DNA of 55,280 nucleotides from a virus (Duplodnaviria > Caudoviricetes). The notes below the pieces were generated by a model. The model did no database searches. It was not told the DNA's origin and worked only from the letters and a program-made list of their open reading frames with translations. The DNA lies in IMG/VR virus record IMGVR_UViG_3300033273_000069, positions 1 to 55,280 of that record; one strand, written 5' to 3'. Below, in pieces: positions 1,974 through 9,835 of the stretch; the stretch's first letter is position 1, and each line of letters opens with the position of its first letter. A program made the position numbers and the translations under genes.

Positions 1974-2009
1974 TTGACACATCGTACGTTGTGTCGGATA
2001 CACTACAAC
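1974..2009 (+). promoter_or_regulatory. Sigma70-like promoter with overlapping palindrome/operator upstream of the cobS-like gene
   Basis: TTGACA at 1974, near-perfect palindrome GACACATCGTACGTTGTGTC (1976-1995), TGTGT-N3-ATACA-CTAC box at 1990-2006. Confidence 0.6.
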
Positions 2010-2030
2010 CTGACAACCATGAGGTATCAA

Positions 2031-3614
2031 ATGTCAAACTCAACAGTTACAGTTCAAGAAATCCTTAACACCCACAATGCTCGTGATACGCAGCGTATCC
2101 TACGAGACTACATCGTCCACGAAACCCGTCACTTCCATGACGAGTGGGCGGCTATTGTCGAGGCAGCCAAGAACTCTCGGCTCGTCAATCATGATCACCC
2201 AAACTCTCGCAAGATGCGTAGCGTAAGCCAGTCGCAGATACTGGATCGCATGAACGTGGACGCGTTGGCTATCATGATTAACCTGATGAACGAGGGTGAC
2301 TACGCAGAAGCACTGGAAACACTCAAGTTCCAGTTCGAACACAGAGGCGTAGATCACATCACGATCTGGCCCTTCTACTTAGAAGCGCCCGACCTTGATC
2401 ACGTTGTGTTGAACGTAGACGCGGACGACGTAACGCCCGACACCGATGGTGAGGCCGAGGCGGAGCCAGAGGCCGAGCCTTCTGGTGCGTACAACGTGAA
2501 GGACGATATTGCGTCGGCTGCGAACGTGTTGCTACGTGCCGCAACCAATGGCGAGATGGACGATCTGCAAGCGTTGCTCGATGAGGTCGTGGAGCTACGC
2601 AACAAGCCTAGCTTCGCACCGCTTCCACAGGTGCAAGCGTCTGGTACGATCCCATTCGGTGCACCCATACGCAAGAATGCGCAAGAGGTGTTCGGCATCG
2701 ACAGCGAACTGCTCGACTTCGACATCAACACGTACGAGTGGGACGGTGACAATCCGTTGGTGCCACGCAAGGACGAGAACTACATCTTCAACGTGGACAA
2801 TCTGCACGACGTGTTGTGGGCCAAAGAGAACGGCGAGAACGCATGGCTGACTGGTCACACTGGCACAGGCAAGTCCACGTTCATCGCTCAAGTCTGTGCG
2901 TACACTGGCTACATGATGGTGCGTGTCAACATGGACAGTGCGATTGAACGCCCTGACTTCGTTGGTTCGATGGCTGTCACGACCGATGATGATGGCAACA
3001 CAGTCACACGGTTCAAGGACGGCATCTTGCCCAAGGCGATGCAGCAACCATGCGTGTTGTTGCTTGACGAGATAGATGCTGTACGCGCTGACATCGCATA
3101 CGTGATGCAGCCTGTCCTTGAGGGTCAGCCGTTGCGCTTGCTTGAGGATGGTGGTCGTGTGGTTCACCCACATCCTGACTTCCACATCGTCGCTACTGCC
3201 AACACCACTGGTGCAGGCGATAGCTCGGGCATGTACGCAAGTGCGGTCAAGGTTCAGTCTCGTGCGCTTATCAACCGCTTCAGCACGTTCGTCAGTGTGG
3301 GCTACCTACCCATCGACGACGAGATGCAGTTGGTTCGCAATGCTGCGCCCAACATCAGCGACGAAGCGATGGGCATGATCAAAGACTTCGTGAGTACGTA
3401 CCGCTTGGGCTTCCACGATGGAACGATTGCGACACCCATCTCGCCTCGTAACACCACCACGATTGGCAAGTACGTGAGCAGCATCGAGGGCCGTGTCGGT
3501 GCGACCGATGCAGTACGTCGTGCGCTCAACATGAACGTGATGCTGACCGTCGATGAGGGCGACGCCATTGCCGTGACAGGCATCATGGATCGCATCTCTG
3601 GTCAACCATTCTAA
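2031..3614 (+). CDS. CobS/MoxR-like AAA+ ATPase with long N-terminal extension
   Basis: Walker A GHTGTGKS, Walker B LLLDEID, ATANT sensor, ALINRF arginine finger; GAGG RBS before ATG 2031. Confidence 0.9.
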   Translation: MSNSTVTVQEILNTHNARDTQRILRDYIVHETRHFHDEWAAIVEAAKNSRLVNHDHPNSRKMRSVSQSQILDRMNVDALAIMINLMNEGDYAEALETLKFQFEHRGVDHITIWPFYLEAPDLDHVVLNVDADDVTPDTDGEAEAEPEAEPSGAYNVKDDIASAANVLLRAATNGEMDDLQALLDEVVELRNKPSFAPLPQVQASGTIPFGAPIRKNAQEVFGIDSELLDFDINTYEWDGDNPLVPRKDENYIFNVDNLHDVLWAKENGENAWLTGHTGTGKSTFIAQVCAYTGYMMVRVNMDSAIERPDFVGSMAVTTDDDGNTVTRFKDGILPKAMQQPCVLLLDEIDAVRADIAYVMQPVLEGQPLRLLEDGGRVVHPHPDFHIVATANTTGAGDSSGMYASAVKVQSRALINRFSTFVSVGYLPIDDEMQLVRNAAPNISDEAMGMIKDFVSTYRLGFHDGTIATPISPRNTTTIGKYVSSIEGRVGATDAVRRALNMNVMLTVDEGDAIAVTGIMDRISGQPF

Positions 3615-3642
3615 TCAATCTCAACATTCACAGGAGACACAC

Positions 3643-5622
3643 ATGTTTTCACAAAATTCAGTATCCGCATTGGCGACAGAGTTGGAAAAACTTTCTCGCA
3701 TCATGGGTGGCAAAGACATACGTACCCAGTTCAAGGGCGACCGTGCGTTCACCGATGGTAAGTTCATCAATGTTCCTGCGATGGACTTGACCGCCGAGCT
3801 TGACCCTACCCACCAAGCAATCATGCGTGGCTACCACATACATGAGGTCAGCCACGTAACAGACACAGACTTTGGCATGTTCCAGAAGCGTGGCATCAAC
3901 AAGATCAAGAGCATCTGGAACTGTTCCGAGGATGTGTTCGTAGAACGCAAGGCGATCCAGAAGTTTGCGGGTGCCCGCAAGAATTTGCAGGAGACAGTGC
4001 AACACGTACTGGCGAACGAGCAACAGTTCCGCAAGGACAATCCTGATCACCCACAGGTCAAGCGTACACGTTGGTGGTCTGAGATACCCTACGCTGCGCT
4101 TCAGCAAGCACGTAAGCAGATGGGGTACGAGAGCGAGGCACTTGATGAGTACCTGTCGGGCTTACCCAAGGAGTTGGCTCGTGAGGCTCGCAAGTTTGCC
4201 AAGCGTATGATCGAGGCTGACAGCAGCGAGGAAGCAGTGAAGGTTGCTCGTGCCATGAAGCGACGCATGGACAAGTTGGGTACACCCGAGGAAGAGCAGC
4301 AAGAGCAGCAGCAAGACGGTGGCATGGCTACGTCATCAGACGATGGACAGCAGCAAGGCGATGGTGGCGACGACAACACCAACGACGAGACTGACGACGA
4401 CGGTGACGAGCAAGGCGATGGCAATCGTACGAACGACGACGACAGCGACGGCGATGATGAAGGCGACGACGGCAGCGGCAGCGGCAGCGGTGACGGCGAC
4501 GAGGACACTGACGACGACGGCAGCGACGACAGTGGCAGCGACGGCGACGCTGATGGTGACGACGGTGGCGACGGTGATGCTGACGAGGACTTCGACCTTG
4601 AGGCTGCGCAAAATCGTGCCGACGAGGCAATGCAGGAACTGTTTGGCAAGTACAACACAGGCACGAGCGACATCAACCAGAACCTTGCACCAATCTTTCG
4701 TACGCATGTCGAGTATTGGGATTACCTACATGACTTGTACCACAATACACCCAACACGAAAGAGGCTCGTGAGTTAGCTGACGTTTGGCGTCAAGAGGTG
4801 ATAGATATTACTGCCAGACAAGCTGCGAAAGAGCACACAAACGATGCCAAGCGGTTAATCAGTGACGATGTACGCCAGTACAGCGCACGACTTGCTCGGT
4901 TGTTGTTGGCGCAGGAAGATCGTCGTAATGAGGGCGGTTACGCAAGCGGTCGCATTGATCGTCGTCGGTTGAGCCAGTTGGTTGCAGGCAACACCAATGT
5001 GTTTGCACGTCCACATGTGACACGTACGAGCGAGACACGCATCATGATTGCGGTCGATGGTTCGGGCAGCATGAATGCATCACGAACAAGACAGGCAATA
5101 CTCGCAATCAATTCGTGCCTTGGTCGTGCAGGGGTCAAGTTCGATATTGTCGAGTGGACGCAGACCACACTCAGAAGAGGCAAAGGGAACACAGCCCGAA
5201 ACAATACTGGCCTGATCTATCACAAGACTGCGAGTGATAGCTGGCGCACGATTGACACTGAGTTTGACTTCCAACCCGTCGGTGGCAGTACGCCCACGTA
5301 CTCTGCGATACTGTCGGTGTCACGCATCATGGCTGAGTGGACTGAGCCTCGTCGCATCTGTTTGTTCGTGACTGATGGGGTGCCGAACGGTTGGACAGTC
5401 GGTGAAGGCGAGGCTGTTGGTGAGCACGTAAGTGCCATGCGCAAGGCCGACATCGAAGTGTACGGCATTGGGATCGGCACCAACTGCAATATCACCCAGA
5501 AGATCATGACGGATATGTTTGACACGCACGTTGTGCATACCGACTTTGAGAAACTTGGCGAGACGATGCTTGGCGGCATCGAGCGCCTATTGATTGCAGA
5601 GGGTCACGCTCATGCCGCGTGA
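3643..5622 (+). CDS. CobT-like protein: N-terminal HExxH domain, Asp/Gly-rich linker, C-terminal vWA domain
   Basis: HEVSH motif, GRIDRRRL motif, MIDAS DGSGS...T...TDG; directly follows the AAA+ gene. Confidence 0.88.
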   Translation: MFSQNSVSALATELEKLSRIMGGKDIRTQFKGDRAFTDGKFINVPAMDLTAELDPTHQAIMRGYHIHEVSHVTDTDFGMFQKRGINKIKSIWNCSEDVFVERKAIQKFAGARKNLQETVQHVLANEQQFRKDNPDHPQVKRTRWWSEIPYAALQQARKQMGYESEALDEYLSGLPKELAREARKFAKRMIEADSSEEAVKVARAMKRRMDKLGTPEEEQQEQQQDGGMATSSDDGQQQGDGGDDNTNDETDDDGDEQGDGNRTNDDDSDGDDEGDDGSGSGSGDGDEDTDDDGSDDSGSDGDADGDDGGDGDADEDFDLEAAQNRADEAMQELFGKYNTGTSDINQNLAPIFRTHVEYWDYLHDLYHNTPNTKEARELADVWRQEVIDITARQAAKEHTNDAKRLISDDVRQYSARLARLLLAQEDRRNEGGYASGRIDRRRLSQLVAGNTNVFARPHVTRTSETRIMIAVDGSGSMNASRTRQAILAINSCLGRAGVKFDIVEWTQTTLRRGKGNTARNNTGLIYHKTASDSWRTIDTEFDFQPVGGSTPTYSAILSVSRIMAEWTEPRRICLFVTDGVPNGWTVGEGEAVGEHVSAMRKADIEVYGIGIGTNCNITQKIMTDMFDTHVVHTDFEKLGETMLGGIERLLIAEGHAHAA

Positions 5623-7143: not shown

Positions 7144-7315
7144 GATAAAATACATTCCTGTTGCAACAAGAACGGTGCAGTCTCAGGGCCAAGGAGTGTA
7201 AACAGCCTTTACTACACTGACATGGTTGACGCACTCATGCCTTACGTTTGCAGGGAATGCCAAGCCCTGCGATGATTGATGCCCCTGTGAGGGACAATAG
7301 AGGGCATCAATTCCA

Positions 7316-8017
7316 CTACACAACCACGGTTGGGTTGAGTTGTTCCATGCGACGTCCGTAAACGAGAGACGTGTGCGCTTTTCCCTCAGAGTTGTGTGTT
7401 GTGTATCTGGCCTCCACCAGTTTACCCGCCCGAGCGAGAACGTCGCAACGACTTTGGACTTTGGTGTAGCATCCGTGTTGCGTCTCGTTCATAGACTTTA
7501 GAGGGACAGGATTTATCGAGAGGACAGACCATAAGACGTCTACGAAACCCATCGGATTTACATCCAAAACCTCGAGTATCATGTCGTCTAAGTCAGAGTT
7601 GTCCATGTTCAGCAGAAGAGTAAACATTTGATCGCGCATTGTACGCAGATCGGGTGTGGCAGTCACAGGCTCCACAACTTTTTCTGGTTGTGTAGGTGTG
7701 ACAACTTCGGGCGCAAATTCTTCTGCGGCGTAGTCGTCTTTCTCGACGACTTCTTCTTCTTCATCTTCGTCTGGCACAAGAACTGTGTTCTCGTGATCCT
7801 GATGTAAGCGTACTGCAATCCAATGTGCAATGTGCTGACGCTCTGGATAGTTAGGGCGTAGTGTTGCGTGGTACTTGTCTCCTTTGCGCACGTCACAGGC
7901 TTCCGCCATCGCGACTGAGATGTAACAGTTCTCGCCATCATCCGTGAGTGAATACGCAGAACCGATACGTGTTACGTTAGTTATTTCGATTACTTTAGAT
8001 GTGTATGTGATCATCAT
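7316..8017 (-). CDS. Hypothetical protein: OB/cold-shock-like N-terminal domain, acidic linker, possible winged-helix C-terminus
   Basis: ITNVTRIGSAYSLTDDGENCYIS...KGD pattern; start re-assigned to ATG 8017 because the upstream extension runs into attP. Confidence 0.7.
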   Translation of the reverse strand: MMITYTSKVIEITNVTRIGSAYSLTDDGENCYISVAMAEACDVRKGDKYHATLRPNYPERQHIAHWIAVRLHQDHENTVLVPDEDEEEEVVEKDDYAAEEFAPEVVTPTQPEKVVEPVTATPDLRTMRDQMFTLLLNMDNSDLDDMILEVLDVNPMGFVDVLWSVLSINPVPLKSMNETQHGCYTKVQSRCDVLARAGKLVEARYTTHNSEGKAHTSLVYGRRMEQLNPTVVV

Positions 8018-8132
8018 TCTTAACCCAGTAATGTGTGTGCAACACAATAGTTGCGGTGATGTTTGAACCAAGAGTTGTGTACTCTTGGGTTGCTCAATGA
8101 ACACCGAAAGTTAAATGAAGATTTTGGGAAAA

Positions 8133-8174
8133 CCCTTAGCAGGGGAGCGCCTTCGACCACTCGGCCACGTTTCC
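8133..8174 (-). tRNA. 5' half of tRNA-Ser(GCT) (fragment) = probable attP core
   Basis: - strand GGAAACGTGGCCGAGTGGTCGAAGGCGCTCCCCTGCTAAGGG: acceptor 5' strand, D-arm and anticodon loop CTGCTAA; diverges 3 nt after the loop, with no variable or T arm; lies ~100 bp from the integrase stop. Confidence 0.88.
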
Positions 8175-8181
8175 ATGGACG

Positions 8182-8210
8182 GTAATACGCAGTAGGCGTT
8201 TGATGTGCAA
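8182..8210 (-). promoter_or_regulatory. Sigma70-like promoter in front of the tRNA half
   Basis: TTGCAC-N17-TATTAC, 7 nt upstream of the tRNA G1. Confidence 0.7.
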
Positions 8211-8272
8211 GAGAGTTATTCATCTTTCTTCCTACTTAACCTTCGGTGTGTCCTCAAGTTGTGTGGCTGACC

Positions 8273-9283
8273 CTACGCAAGGGACATCACGGCTGCTTTA
8301 TGATCTTCGAAGGTCGTGTTCATGTAGCGCATGACCATCTTTAGATCGCTGTGCCCAAGTAGATCGGCGATCACTTTGGGCGGTACTCCGTTACGCGCAA
8401 GACGCGTAGCGAATGTGTGTCGTAAGGCGTAAGGCGACTTGGTGATACCAAGTTTGTCAGTGACCTTGCGCCAGTGGTATCCGATCTGTTTGTTCGTTTC
8501 GAAGGCGCGGCCTTCGAGTAAGAACGGATACGTGTGCGGTGGCGGATCGCTCCGTGGGATTGTCGCGAGTGCATTGTCGTTTAGGGGCACCCGACGCTCC
8601 CTGAGTTCTCCGTTTGCGCCCTTATACGAACCGAGGACTACAGTGTTGTTGCTGAAGTCTACGTTGTCGTAGGTTAGACGCATCGCCTCAATCGGACGCG
8701 CACCAGTATGCAGAAGGAAGTTGCAAAGGCGGCGGATGTCAGGATGCAAGTCGGGAAAGATTGCGTCGATCTCTTCTTGCGATAACGTATCCGTTTTGTG
8801 TTTACCTTCGCGCGGCTTCTTCAGCTTTATGGTGTCGCGTAACCCGAGGGATGCTGCAAAGTTTAGAACACCTTGGAGTTGGTTGAGGTCACGCCTTATG
8901 GTTGAGTTGGCGTTGCCCTTGTTGACATGCTTCTCTTCGACATATTCTTCGATGTCGTTCAAGTCGATCTTGTTGACTTGGAAGTCTCCGAAATAATCTA
9001 CGAGACGCATGACGTACTCCTGTGTTGACTTGCTGCTCCCAGTATGGGGCGACTTGAGATAGCGACGAGCGACTGAACGGAATTTGTTTTGTGCTCCGTG
9101 TATGGATTTCTGTCCGAGCTTGATGTGACCCGCTAGAACTTTTGCTTCGTACTCCGCTGCTAATTCTTTTGCGTGTACGTAGTCGGCTGTACCTAGTGAG
9201 TGTCGGACGCGAAAGCCTTGCCAGTTGCCAACCGCGTAGTAAAATTTGCCACCGCTGCGCTTCTTTACTTTGAAGAGTGGCAA
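8273..9283 (-). CDS. int: Tyrosine recombinase/integrase
   Basis: TGAR, YALRHTFAT, LLGHSD, MRY catalytic motifs; N-terminal arm-binding-like region; adjacent to the tRNA fragment. Confidence 0.95.
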   Translation of the reverse strand: MPLFKVKKRSGGKFYYAVGNWQGFRVRHSLGTADYVHAKELAAEYEAKVLAGHIKLGQKSIHGAQNKFRSVARRYLKSPHTGSSKSTQEYVMRLVDYFGDFQVNKIDLNDIEEYVEEKHVNKGNANSTIRRDLNQLQGVLNFAASLGLRDTIKLKKPREGKHKTDTLSQEEIDAIFPDLHPDIRRLCNFLLHTGARPIEAMRLTYDNVDFSNNTVVLGSYKGANGELRERRVPLNDNALATIPRSDPPPHTYPFLLEGRAFETNKQIGYHWRKVTDKLGITKSPYALRHTFATRLARNGVPPKVIADLLGHSDLKMVMRYMNTTFEDHKAAVMSLA

Positions 9284-9286
9284 GCG

Positions 9287-9742
9287 TTAGTCCTCCTTTC
9301 TGTATAGTGCTGCGTGTGGGTCAGGCACATTTGGATCGTACGTTCGTGCCCAGTCGATTGGTATGCCGCCTGAACTGCGAGCGTATTCGGTAGGGTCTAC
9401 GCGGTCGAGGATGTCGTTAAAAACGAGTGCTGCTTGCCCTCTAGTTTTTGTGCCGACCTTCTTACACACGGCCCTTACATGTAGCTTAACAGTATTCTCT
9501 GCGATATTTAGGACGTCCCCAATATTTTTATTGGCCCATCCCTCTATGAGTAGTTGTGCAGTTATGTGCTGCTTGGCAGTCATAGTTCGGAGCAAAGAGA
9601 GTTCGGCGGGGGACACGGTGCTATAAGCATCTGATATAGACGGCGCATCCTTACCCTGCTGTAGGAGAAGATTAGTGATAATGTCGAGCTTGGCTTCAAG
9701 ACGAGCAAGCTCAAAGCGAAGTGCAGTATTTGTACTAGACAT
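9287..9742 (-). CDS. LuxR/GerE-type HTH transcription regulator (no ligand-binding domain evident)
   Basis: MTAKQHITAQLLIEGWANKNIGDVLNIAENTVKLHVRAVCKK...TRGQA matches the LuxR C-terminal HTH pattern; likely start ATG 9742. Confidence 0.85.
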   Translation of the reverse strand: MSSTNTALRFELARLEAKLDIITNLLLQQGKDAPSISDAYSTVSPAELSLLRTMTAKQHITAQLLIEGWANKNIGDVLNIAENTVKLHVRAVCKKVGTKTRGQAALVFNDILDRVDPTEYARSSGGIPIDWARTYDPNVPDPHAALYRKED

Positions 9743-9805
9743 TGTATCATTTTGATCCGTGATAGTTGATGATTGATGACGCCCAAGTTGTTGTGGGCTA
9801 TCTGG

Positions 9806-9835
9806 AATGTAGTGTTTATGATACATCTATGTCAA
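9806..9835 (-). promoter_or_regulatory. Promoter of the luxR-like gene with an operator in the spacer
   Basis: TTGACA-N18-TACATT; the spacer contains ATGTATCATAAACACTAC, 17/18 identical to 15917-15934. Confidence 0.7.

Follow-up and report, generated by a model that had tools for sequence, protein, structure and literature searches.

In the window (the whole stretch of DNA that was analysed, which is the entire virus record of 55,280 bp), the region at 8040-8270 is probably the attP of a temperate CRP-810-type roseophage, whose integrase would target the anticodon loop of the host tRNA-Ser(GCT) gene and whose phage-borne 5' half would rebuild the tRNA. Comparison gives the reading as an attP good support; what we infer from sequence is integration, promoter activity and transcription into gene X, the first gene after the core. 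The window fits the 5'-half kind of tRNA targeting, which is known but uncommon, and it gains interest because this kind prevails in a clade of marine phages that are common. The sequence-only reading, in which integration swaps promoters between the host tRNA and a phage gene and so acts as an expression switch, is partly supported as a whole.

A 5' fragment of tRNA-Ser(GCT) beside the integrase gene

On the minus strand, positions 8133..8174 match exactly the 5' 42 nt of tRNA-Ser(GCT) at 17 host loci. This 42-mer is found once in the window and in none of 100 shuffles. It consists of the 5' strand of the acceptor stem, the D arm, the 5' strand of the anticodon stem, the anticodon loop and 3 nt of the 3' stem strand. 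ARAGORN called no tRNA gene in the window, and Rfam reported nothing there at gathering level, since a full-length tRNA alignment forced over 8099-8174 reached 15.2 bits against a gathering score of 29. The block is therefore a fragment rather than a gene.

Phage and host are identical from tRNA +1 itself to 3 nt past the 7-nt anticodon loop; farther on, the host sequence runs on to the variable arm and the phage sequence is unrelated. The tRNA 3' half has no match to the attP block, and upstream of +1 the identity is limited to CTCTTG at the -35 place. The attP thus holds the 5' part of the tRNA (positions 1-42 only) in place of the usual 3' part, just as had been proposed. The anticodon-loop bases at 8136..8142 (minus strand) are the inferred 7-nt crossover segment, and relatives match the tRNA up to a point 1-4 nt beyond the loop. 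The anticodon loop is a described sublocation of integration (10.1101/2020.11.02.365908; PMC8371274), and the boundary of identity is consistent with a crossover there, in agreement with the crossover point suggested from the sequence alone.

Read along the minus strand, the order is the LuxR-like gene, the integrase, one copy of an 8-nt repeat, an inverted-repeat arm, TTGCAC, a 17-nt spacer and TATTAC, followed by 7 nt, the 42-nt tRNA fragment, the second repeat arm, two hairpins and gene X. The sequence-only reading had described a 42-bp tRNA 5' fragment through the anticodon loop, TTGCAC-N17-TATTAC upstream of it, a flanking 14-bp inverted repeat and a location just beyond the integrase stop. 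All of these elements are present (at 8174..8133 on the minus strand, at 8210..8182, at 8101-8114 and 8236-8249, and with 98 nt from the stop to tRNA +1, respectively), and its coordinates were off by a base or two.

The integrase gene (8273..9283, minus strand) encodes a tyrosine integrase of 336 aa (PF00589, E 1.1e-21; phrog_1 integrase, E 4.2e-56). R196, K221, R288 and Y320, which we take to be its catalytic residues, are invariant across 26 aligned integrase relatives. Of the features of an attP module, a PF00589 integrase, the Arg-Lys-Arg-Tyr set and 42/42 nt of host identity 98 nt from the integrase stop are present. Immediately upstream and co-directional lies a LuxR-family (GerE) helix-turn-helix gene (9287..9826, minus strand; PF00196 GerE, E 2.5e-10), and the same order is annotated in Roseobacter phage CRP-810.

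Several short repeats surround the core. An 8-nt motif at 8257..8264, a candidate arm-type site on the integrase side, is one copy of direct repeat D3 with the second at 8073-8080, and the corresponding CCACACAAC block is kept in 16 unique relatives. The 14-nt inverted repeat I1 (93% complementary) has its upstream arm at 8236..8249 and its downstream arm at 8101..8114, both candidate arm-type sites. The upstream arm is conserved in relatives though the neighbouring sequence diverges, and the TAACTTTCGGTG block of the downstream arm is conserved as well. These conserved inverted and direct repeats flanking the core are probably arm-type sites.

Phage family and host group

The virus record has a completeness rating of 99% and no end repeats. 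Its TerL is 60% identical over 97% of the length to that of Roseobacter phage CRP-810, the top of 2647 matching phage records. The luxR-integrase order is common to the two phages, and a PHROG search found CobS/CobT-like genes at 1974-5622 in the window; cobS/cobT-like genes are reported for the CRP-810 family (PMC11288001). Because of the TerL similarity, the luxR-integrase order and the CobS/CobT-like genes, the window can be assigned on sequence grounds to the CRP-810-type roseophage family as that paper presents it (PMC11288001). The integrases of the window and CRP-810 are merely 29% identical.

Among the genomes scanned, the exact 42-mer (window 8174..8133) is present in 17 species genomes, all of Rhodobacteraceae/Paracoccaceae, including strain HIMB11, Epibacterium ulvae, a Pelagimonas and a Marinovum. 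At 16 of these 17 loci it forms positions 1-42 of a 90-nt tRNA-Ser(GCT), and the 17th is cut by a contig end. The identity of the fragment as host tRNA-Ser(GCT), a check that had been named beforehand, is thus borne out by exact matches in genes of this group. All intact loci (16 of 16) show host-type upstream sequence and are empty attB sites. One short block therefore names the host group of an uncultured near-complete phage, that is, pelagic roseobacters with a GGAAACG-type tRNA-Ser(GCT).

In a sample of 401 family genomes, 268 have a match, and in 264 of these tRNA-Ser(GCT) exists as one copy only. Since nearly all of these genomes hold one copy, disruption of the gene without repair should be costly.

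Conservation of the 5' half among relatives

An integrase search gave 29 IMG/VR loci, with the fragment in 24 of them and no extension past tRNA position 43 in any. By a profile search we collected 80 loci, 47 of which have an integrase at least 30% identical to that of the window (30-98%). A tRNA 5' half is present in 41 of these 47 loci, 34 of Ser-GCT and 7 of Arg-CCT type, and the Arg(CCT) identity of the latter was verified against host genes. Every one of the 41 halves lies on the integrase strand (0 on the other strand), 65-164 nt beyond the integrase stop, and ends just after the anticodon loop. This rare 5'-half targeting is thus the rule in one clade of CRP-810-type marine phages and no lone oddity.

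The other loci are of two kinds. L095 and L096 carry, as judged by eye, a 3' part of tRNA-Thr(GGT) in the opposite orientation, and 4 of the 47 loci have no tRNA part, among them L089, a near-twin of L090 minus the attP region. In the remaining 33 more distant loci no 5' half of Ser(GCT) or Arg(CCT), the two patterns sought, was found.

A quick maximum-likelihood tree with 20 Ser-5', 6 Arg-5', 2 Thr-3' and 4 rows without a tRNA part resolved them into two groups with good support; outside both stand CRP-810 and three homologues from genomes, all three of canonical layout. The program cautioned against long branches, and one of the joins it flagged puts the Thr-3' pair next to L093/L094. Whichever half is carried, the tRNA-derived block has the integrase on one side and the anticodon loop on the other, so that the two forms may be read as a symmetric core turned with respect to the arms. 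For the engineering of integrases, natural pairs are available in the clade, related integrases that use either tRNA half around the same symmetric core.

The tRNA part of the attP shows signs of selection. Over 22 unique sequences, its mean pairwise identity is 0.93, compared with 0.40 per 60-nt flank. The differences within it fall mostly at acceptor-stem positions 4-6 (GGAAACG, GGAGACG, GGAGATG, GGAGCTG and GGAGAGG), and every one of these variants recurs as the 5' end of a host tRNA-Ser(GCT) among the matches listed (150 matches, from the 268 of 401 family genomes with a match).

Search for integrated copies, and islands at the same tRNA genes

No attL/attR hybrid or lysogen of this integrase clade was found in the sampled genomes and exact-pattern scans. 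A close integrase is present in 0 of 5 host-candidate genomes (best E 2e-8), and an integrase at E<=1e-25 in 0 of 401 family genomes; among genus relatives, 0 of 8 and 0 of 3 have one. Distant homologues occur in 7 of 401 Alphaproteobacteria (E 1e-31 to 1e-37), and 3 of these 7 adjoin a tRNA, all in the canonical 3' layout. All 51 protein homologues of the integrase lie on contigs of at most 58.6 kb.

A scan for the attR-type pattern (arm motif, gap, T-arm motif) hit no viral contig, and the three metagenome contigs with this pattern were discarded as chance matches at tRNA-Ser(GGA), csrA-tRNA-Ser and tRNA-Ala loci. A right-arm junction scan of a relative returned 10 contigs, all already found via the integrase, and no attL-only contig. 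Among public reads, 20 runs contain 27-40% of the sampled words. Logan contigs of four of the runs break inside 8133-8175 because this stretch is shared with host tRNAs (a depth spike), and no junction is readable there either way.

Integrated elements with other integrases do exist at these sites. Four Rhodobacteraceae islands with other tyrosine integrases are each bounded by a 5' fragment on the upstream side and a full tRNA on the downstream side. In all four the identity ceases directly past the anticodon loop, and the rebuilt gene is preceded by element DNA. The Ser 5' half is present twice in 4 of 401 family genomes (G313, G324, G278 and G110). The 45-kb island of G313 at tRNA-Ser(GCT) begins with a 42-nt fragment behind the host-side upstream region, followed by an antisense tyrosine integrase (PF00589, E 1.3e-16), and the full tRNA comes 45 kb on, preceded by promoter-like hexamers in element DNA; 22 nt of upstream sequence, besides the 42 nt, are common to both copies. 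The 39.7-kb island of G324, also at tRNA-Ser(GCT), has a similar layout, with an integrase remnant 63% identical to that of G313 and a phage lysozyme. G278 has a 16.8-kb island at tRNA-Ser(GCT), and in contig C87 of G005 an 8.8-kb island with a tyrosine integrase lies between a 5' fragment and a full tRNA-Arg(CCT). G110 was left uncounted, since it holds two full tRNA-Ser(GCT) genes 51 kb apart and no fragment-plus-gene pair.

Two isolated Rhizobium phages, RHph_TM3_3_3 and RHph_I1_23, carry a tRNA-Ser(GCT) 5' half about 108 nt past the integrase on the opposite strand, preceded by TTGATC-N17-TATCAG. What these phages and the islands of G313, G324 and G278 share with the window is a block of the first 42-44 nt of tRNA-Ser(GCT) that ends past the anticodon loop and has promoter-like hexamers upstream. 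They differ in that the integrase is on the other side, antisense and beside the anticodon end, and in G313 the identity block reaches 22 nt upstream of the tRNA. The Rhizobium phage integrase is 23% identical to that of the window, and the G313 integrase has no BLAST match to it.

From this comparison, a mechanism of 5'-half integration does exist at these tRNA sites, with other integrases, and four integrated 5'-half examples in Rhodobacteraceae genomes are added. The expectation that related prophages would reveal the site is answered in two ways: within the integrase clade of the window no integrated copy came to light in the sampled genomes and pattern scans, and in the islands with other integrases the tRNA is rebuilt. 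[quoted passage not shown]

The promoter-like site

A promoter-like site (8182..8210, minus strand) was read in the sequence, with TTGCAC at 8210..8205, a 17-nt spacer, TATTAC at 8187..8182 and 7 nt to tRNA +1. The hexamers stand at -36..-31 and -13..-8, the same geometry in the phage as upstream of host tRNA-Ser genes. TTG at -36..-34 is kept in most of 22 unique phage sequences, the commonest -36 hexamers being TTGCAG (7 sequences), TTGCAT (2) and TTGTAG (2). Most Ser-type relatives have TA...C hexamers at -13..-8, with a constant distance to +1 and divergent spacers, and in several Arg-type relatives clear hexamers are absent by eye.

A simple E. coli-type promoter scan, which demands T as the last -10 base, omits the site at 8182..8210 because its last -10 base is C. 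The -10 hexamers of the host tRNA genes likewise end in C, and alphaproteobacterial promoters tolerate C at this position. The hexamers are a putative phage promoter for the rebuilt tRNA. Transcription read-through from the integrase unit may also contribute to its expression, given the several Arg-type relatives without clear hexamers.

Proposed integration and the position of gene X

In the proposed mechanism, the tyrosine integrase would recombine attP with the host tRNA-Ser(GCT) gene in the anticodon loop, and the phage would bring tRNA positions 1-42 on the integrase-proximal side of the crossover. At the far end of the prophage, facing gene X, the host promoter and the host 5' half would remain as a dead fragment. 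The phage 5' half would be joined to the host 3' half, giving a tRNA of wild-type sequence beside the integrase. This rebuilt tRNA would depend on the promoter-like site at 8210..8182, possibly aided by luxR-integrase read-through. The layout foreseen after integration, with the rebuilt tRNA behind a phage promoter and the host promoter facing gene X, does follow from the orientation of the parts.

Gene X (7316..8017, minus strand) is an ORF of 233 aa, co-directional with the integrase and the tRNA fragment. Homologues stand at the same place and at a fixed distance in relatives, and more distant relatives that keep the tRNA half have a different downstream gene. Gene X has no Pfam or PHROG family, and Atlas, PDB-profile and Pfam searches gave only weak leads (wHTH 0.79; Rho RNA-binding OB domain, E 0.069 and 0.016).

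Two hairpins lie between the core and gene X on the minus strand. Hairpin 1 (8068..8088, inverted repeat I5) has an 8-bp stem and a loop that contains the repeated 8-nt motif, and RNAalifold gave 7 pairs, 5 of them with compensatory changes. Hairpin 2 (8039..8054), about 20 nt before the start of gene X, recurs at this position in all 10 of the 10 relatives, with stems that differ in sequence. No U run follows either hairpin on the minus strand, and in the terminator scan hairpin 2 is terminator-like on the plus strand only. The two conserved hairpins might limit read-through into gene X, and they may be RNA elements, protein sites or a part of the attP. A further GC-rich hairpin just past the stop of gene X (7276..7310), in which TTGATGCCC (7276-7284) pairs with GGGCATCAA (7302-7310), was noted by eye as a possible terminator and is absent from the terminator scan list.

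The idea of an expression switch is weakened by this arrangement. Gene X would stand behind a tRNA-type promoter and the same 42-nt leader whether the phage is free or integrated, and the two conserved hairpins between core and gene X weaken the idea further. The promoter exchange is like for like, and therefore no switch is implied; transcription into gene X from a tRNA-type promoter is itself a prediction from the layout.

A wider claim would be that a clade of abundant marine phage integrases has reversed tRNA targeting, with Ser-GCT or Arg-CCT carried as 5' and not as 3' halves, and that the promoter exchange is put to use, with an essential, mostly single-copy tRNA under a prophage promoter and the strong host promoter driving gene X only once integrated. 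We regard this as doubtful. If true, the promoter exchange would be a lysogeny-specific expression or dependence circuit, and if it has a role it would offer a prophage a simple means to sense and use the integrated state.

Alternative explanations

Besides the reading as an attP with its own tRNA promoter, other explanations were weighed. The 5'-half attP might be as described and the hexamers no dedicated promoter, so that the tRNA would be rebuilt under luxR-integrase read-through as in pTN3-like elements. In favour of this, the fragment invariably follows the integrase on its strand at 65-164 nt, a scan gave no terminator-like site between the two on the minus strand, some Arg-type relatives are without clear hexamers, and pTN3 is a precedent (PMC8371274). 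However, TTG and TA...C keep a host-like distance in most Ser-type relatives while the spacers diverge, and in a quiet prophage the supply of an essential tRNA would run short if it hinged on transcription of the integrase, so that we think read-through as the sole source unlikely.

It is very improbable, in our view, that the promoter and the tRNA half serve the free phage, either as a leader of gene X or as a tRNA-half RNA with a regulator or decoy function, and that recombination needs the anticodon stem-loop only. Such a role leaves unexplained the start of identity exactly at tRNA +1, the acceptor-stem variants that match host variants and the interchange of Ser and Arg halves in the same slot, and relatives farther off retain the half in front of another gene; it would suit the fixed distance of gene X in relatives, the two covarying hairpins in the leader and the fact that no lysogen of the integrase clade was seen in the sampled genomes and pattern scans. 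We give the least credence to a decayed phage tRNA, a host scrap from faulty excision or an assembly chimera, now without function. The weak full-length Rfam alignment over 8099-8174 is what this has in its favour, yet its score is below gathering level, the 42 nt are 100% identical to host genes before the identity ends abruptly, 41 loci of many different samples, with integrases as little as 30% identical, share the truncation, and the repeats on either side are kept. The decayed tRNA and the chimera were both rejected on these grounds.

Relation to known systems

Fragments of the tRNA 5' part are a small minority among known islands. Of the 3919 islands in Table 1 of Islander, 3760 have a 3' and 159 a 5' fragment (PMC4383910). 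Software for finding islands that expects 3' fragments could easily miss 5'-half elements. Like the canonical anticodon-loop modules (site class 'A' of Islander), the window has a tyrosine integrase beside the attP, a tRNA block ending at the anticodon stem-loop and a tRNA that would be rebuilt (PMC4383910; PMC8371274). Unlike in those modules, where the 3' part is carried and the host promoter is kept, the block of the window is the 5' part up to the crossover, and for this reason the phage must also bring a promoter.

The nearest described mechanism is that of the archaeal pTN3-like integrases of Thermococcales, for which 5'-half targeting is reported, with the tRNA 5' half as attB and the recombinant tRNA expressed from the integrase promoter of the element (PMC8371274). 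In pTN3-like elements the host tRNA promoter may also transcribe the displaced integrase part, and the same source describes 5'-half targeting as seldom encountered in bacteria (PMC8371274). Targeting of the 5' half with promoter exchange is thus not new as an idea (PMC8371274). In the pTN3-like (suicidal) type the att is internal to the integrase gene; integration splits this gene, and the integrase promoter serves the tRNA (PMC8371274). In contrast, the attP of the window is intergenic, with its core 98 nt past the integrase stop, the integrase would stay intact, separate hexamers precede the tRNA by 7 nt, and a tailed phage with a bacterial host is involved.

The likeness to CRP-810 is a crossover in the middle of a host tRNA gene. 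CRP-810 is reported to share a 13-bp core with tRNA-Thr and to carry a whole tRNA-Thr gene, whereas the window has no whole tRNA, and the CRP-810 paper gives the 13-bp core of that phage only (PMC11288001). A 5'-half attP in CRP-810-type or other roseophages was not found described in the literature searched; the supplement of the CRP-810 paper lists 251 related viral genomes and their att data, which may bear on this.

In the 'tRNA-dependent lysogeny' reported for mycobacteriophages (actinobacteriophages), a whole phage tRNA complements the host (PMC10865867); the window has 0 tRNA genes, and its 42-nt block would rebuild the host gene instead. Klebsiella islands upstream of arg2 (tRNA-Arg) resemble the window in their insertion on the 5' side of the tRNA, and as described they differ in the D-loop sublocation, the host and the integrase group (10.1101/2020.11.02.365908).

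Hairpins around the gene beyond the att core

Between the att core of the window (the 5' 42 nt of tRNA-Ser(GCT)) and the first gene beyond it (7316-8017, minus strand; 233 aa), two hairpins are located at 8039-8054 and 8068-8088, and both are maintained across relatives via compensatory changes. The loop of the hairpin at 8068-8088 contains an 8-nt motif, a second copy of which is found near the integrase stop. A third hairpin, GC-rich and recognized by eye at 7276-7310, is located just past the stop of the 233-aa gene, between convergent genes. It may serve as a terminator, making this gene a single-gene unit.

Probable attP layouts in other phages

The Rhizobium phages RHph_TM3_3_3 and RHph_I1_23 both contain the 5' 44 nt of tRNA-Ser(GCT) (2890-3100 of loci L002 and L003, respectively), about 108 nt beyond the integrase and on the strand opposite to it. 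In both phages this stretch is preceded by TTGATC-N17-TATCAG, and in the annotation of RHph_I1_23 it falls within a hypothetical protein.

Other layouts exist among the integrase relatives from IMG/VR. In L095 and L096 (integrase 42-44% identical to that of the window), the 3' part of tRNA-Thr(GGT) takes the place of the 5' half; it is located about 80-130 nt past the integrase stop and points towards the integrase. As in the relatives with a 5' half, the tRNA block has the integrase on one side and the anticodon loop on the other. At about 100-150 nt past the integrase stop of L083 (59% identical), there is no tRNA half but only a short stem-loop resembling an anticodon stem-loop, which may hint at a non-tRNA target. 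No attP-like block accompanies the integrase gene in L089, L100 and L106. For L089, the gene which is located beyond attP in its near-twin L090 comes almost directly after the integrase stop, as if attP had been deleted.

In Roseobacter phage CRP-810 (L060, 3450-3560), an anticodon-like core was found by eye about 20 nt to the 5' side of a whole tRNA-Thr gene. With the core in this position, the complete phage tRNA would come after the promoter and 5' half of the host gene in the integrated form.

Islands at tRNA genes in Rhodobacteraceae genomes

Islands bounded by a 5' fragment of tRNA-Ser(GCT) and the full gene are present in genomes G313 (45 kb; L141, 3040-4188, and L142, 4762-4851), G324 (39.7 kb; L146 and L145) and G278 (16.8 kb; L149 and L152). 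In the G313 island, a tyrosine integrase gene adjoins the 5' fragment in antisense orientation, and the repeat at the island ends reaches 22 nt upstream of the tRNA. In genome G110 (L143 and L144), the full tRNA-Ser(GCT) gene is present twice on the same strand, at a distance of 51 kb, and the upstream regions of the two copies are similar. This arrangement may reflect a duplication, or an island bringing a whole gene.

An AT-rich island of 8.8 kb lies between a 5' fragment and the full gene of tRNA-Arg(CCT) in G005 (L175, contig C87; 35-111 and 8873-8911), on a contig that stops just beyond each tRNA copy. It encodes a DUF5906 protein and a 537-aa tyrosine integrase, the latter divergent from the rebuilt tRNA-Arg(CCT).

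CobS/CobT-like genes

Two large genes of the window (1974-5622) match PHROGs annotated as porphyrin/cobalamin biosynthesis, one encoding a CobS-like ATPase and the other a CobT-like protein whose long insert is acidic and rich in Asp and Gly. Such a pair has likewise been reported for CRP-810-type phages.
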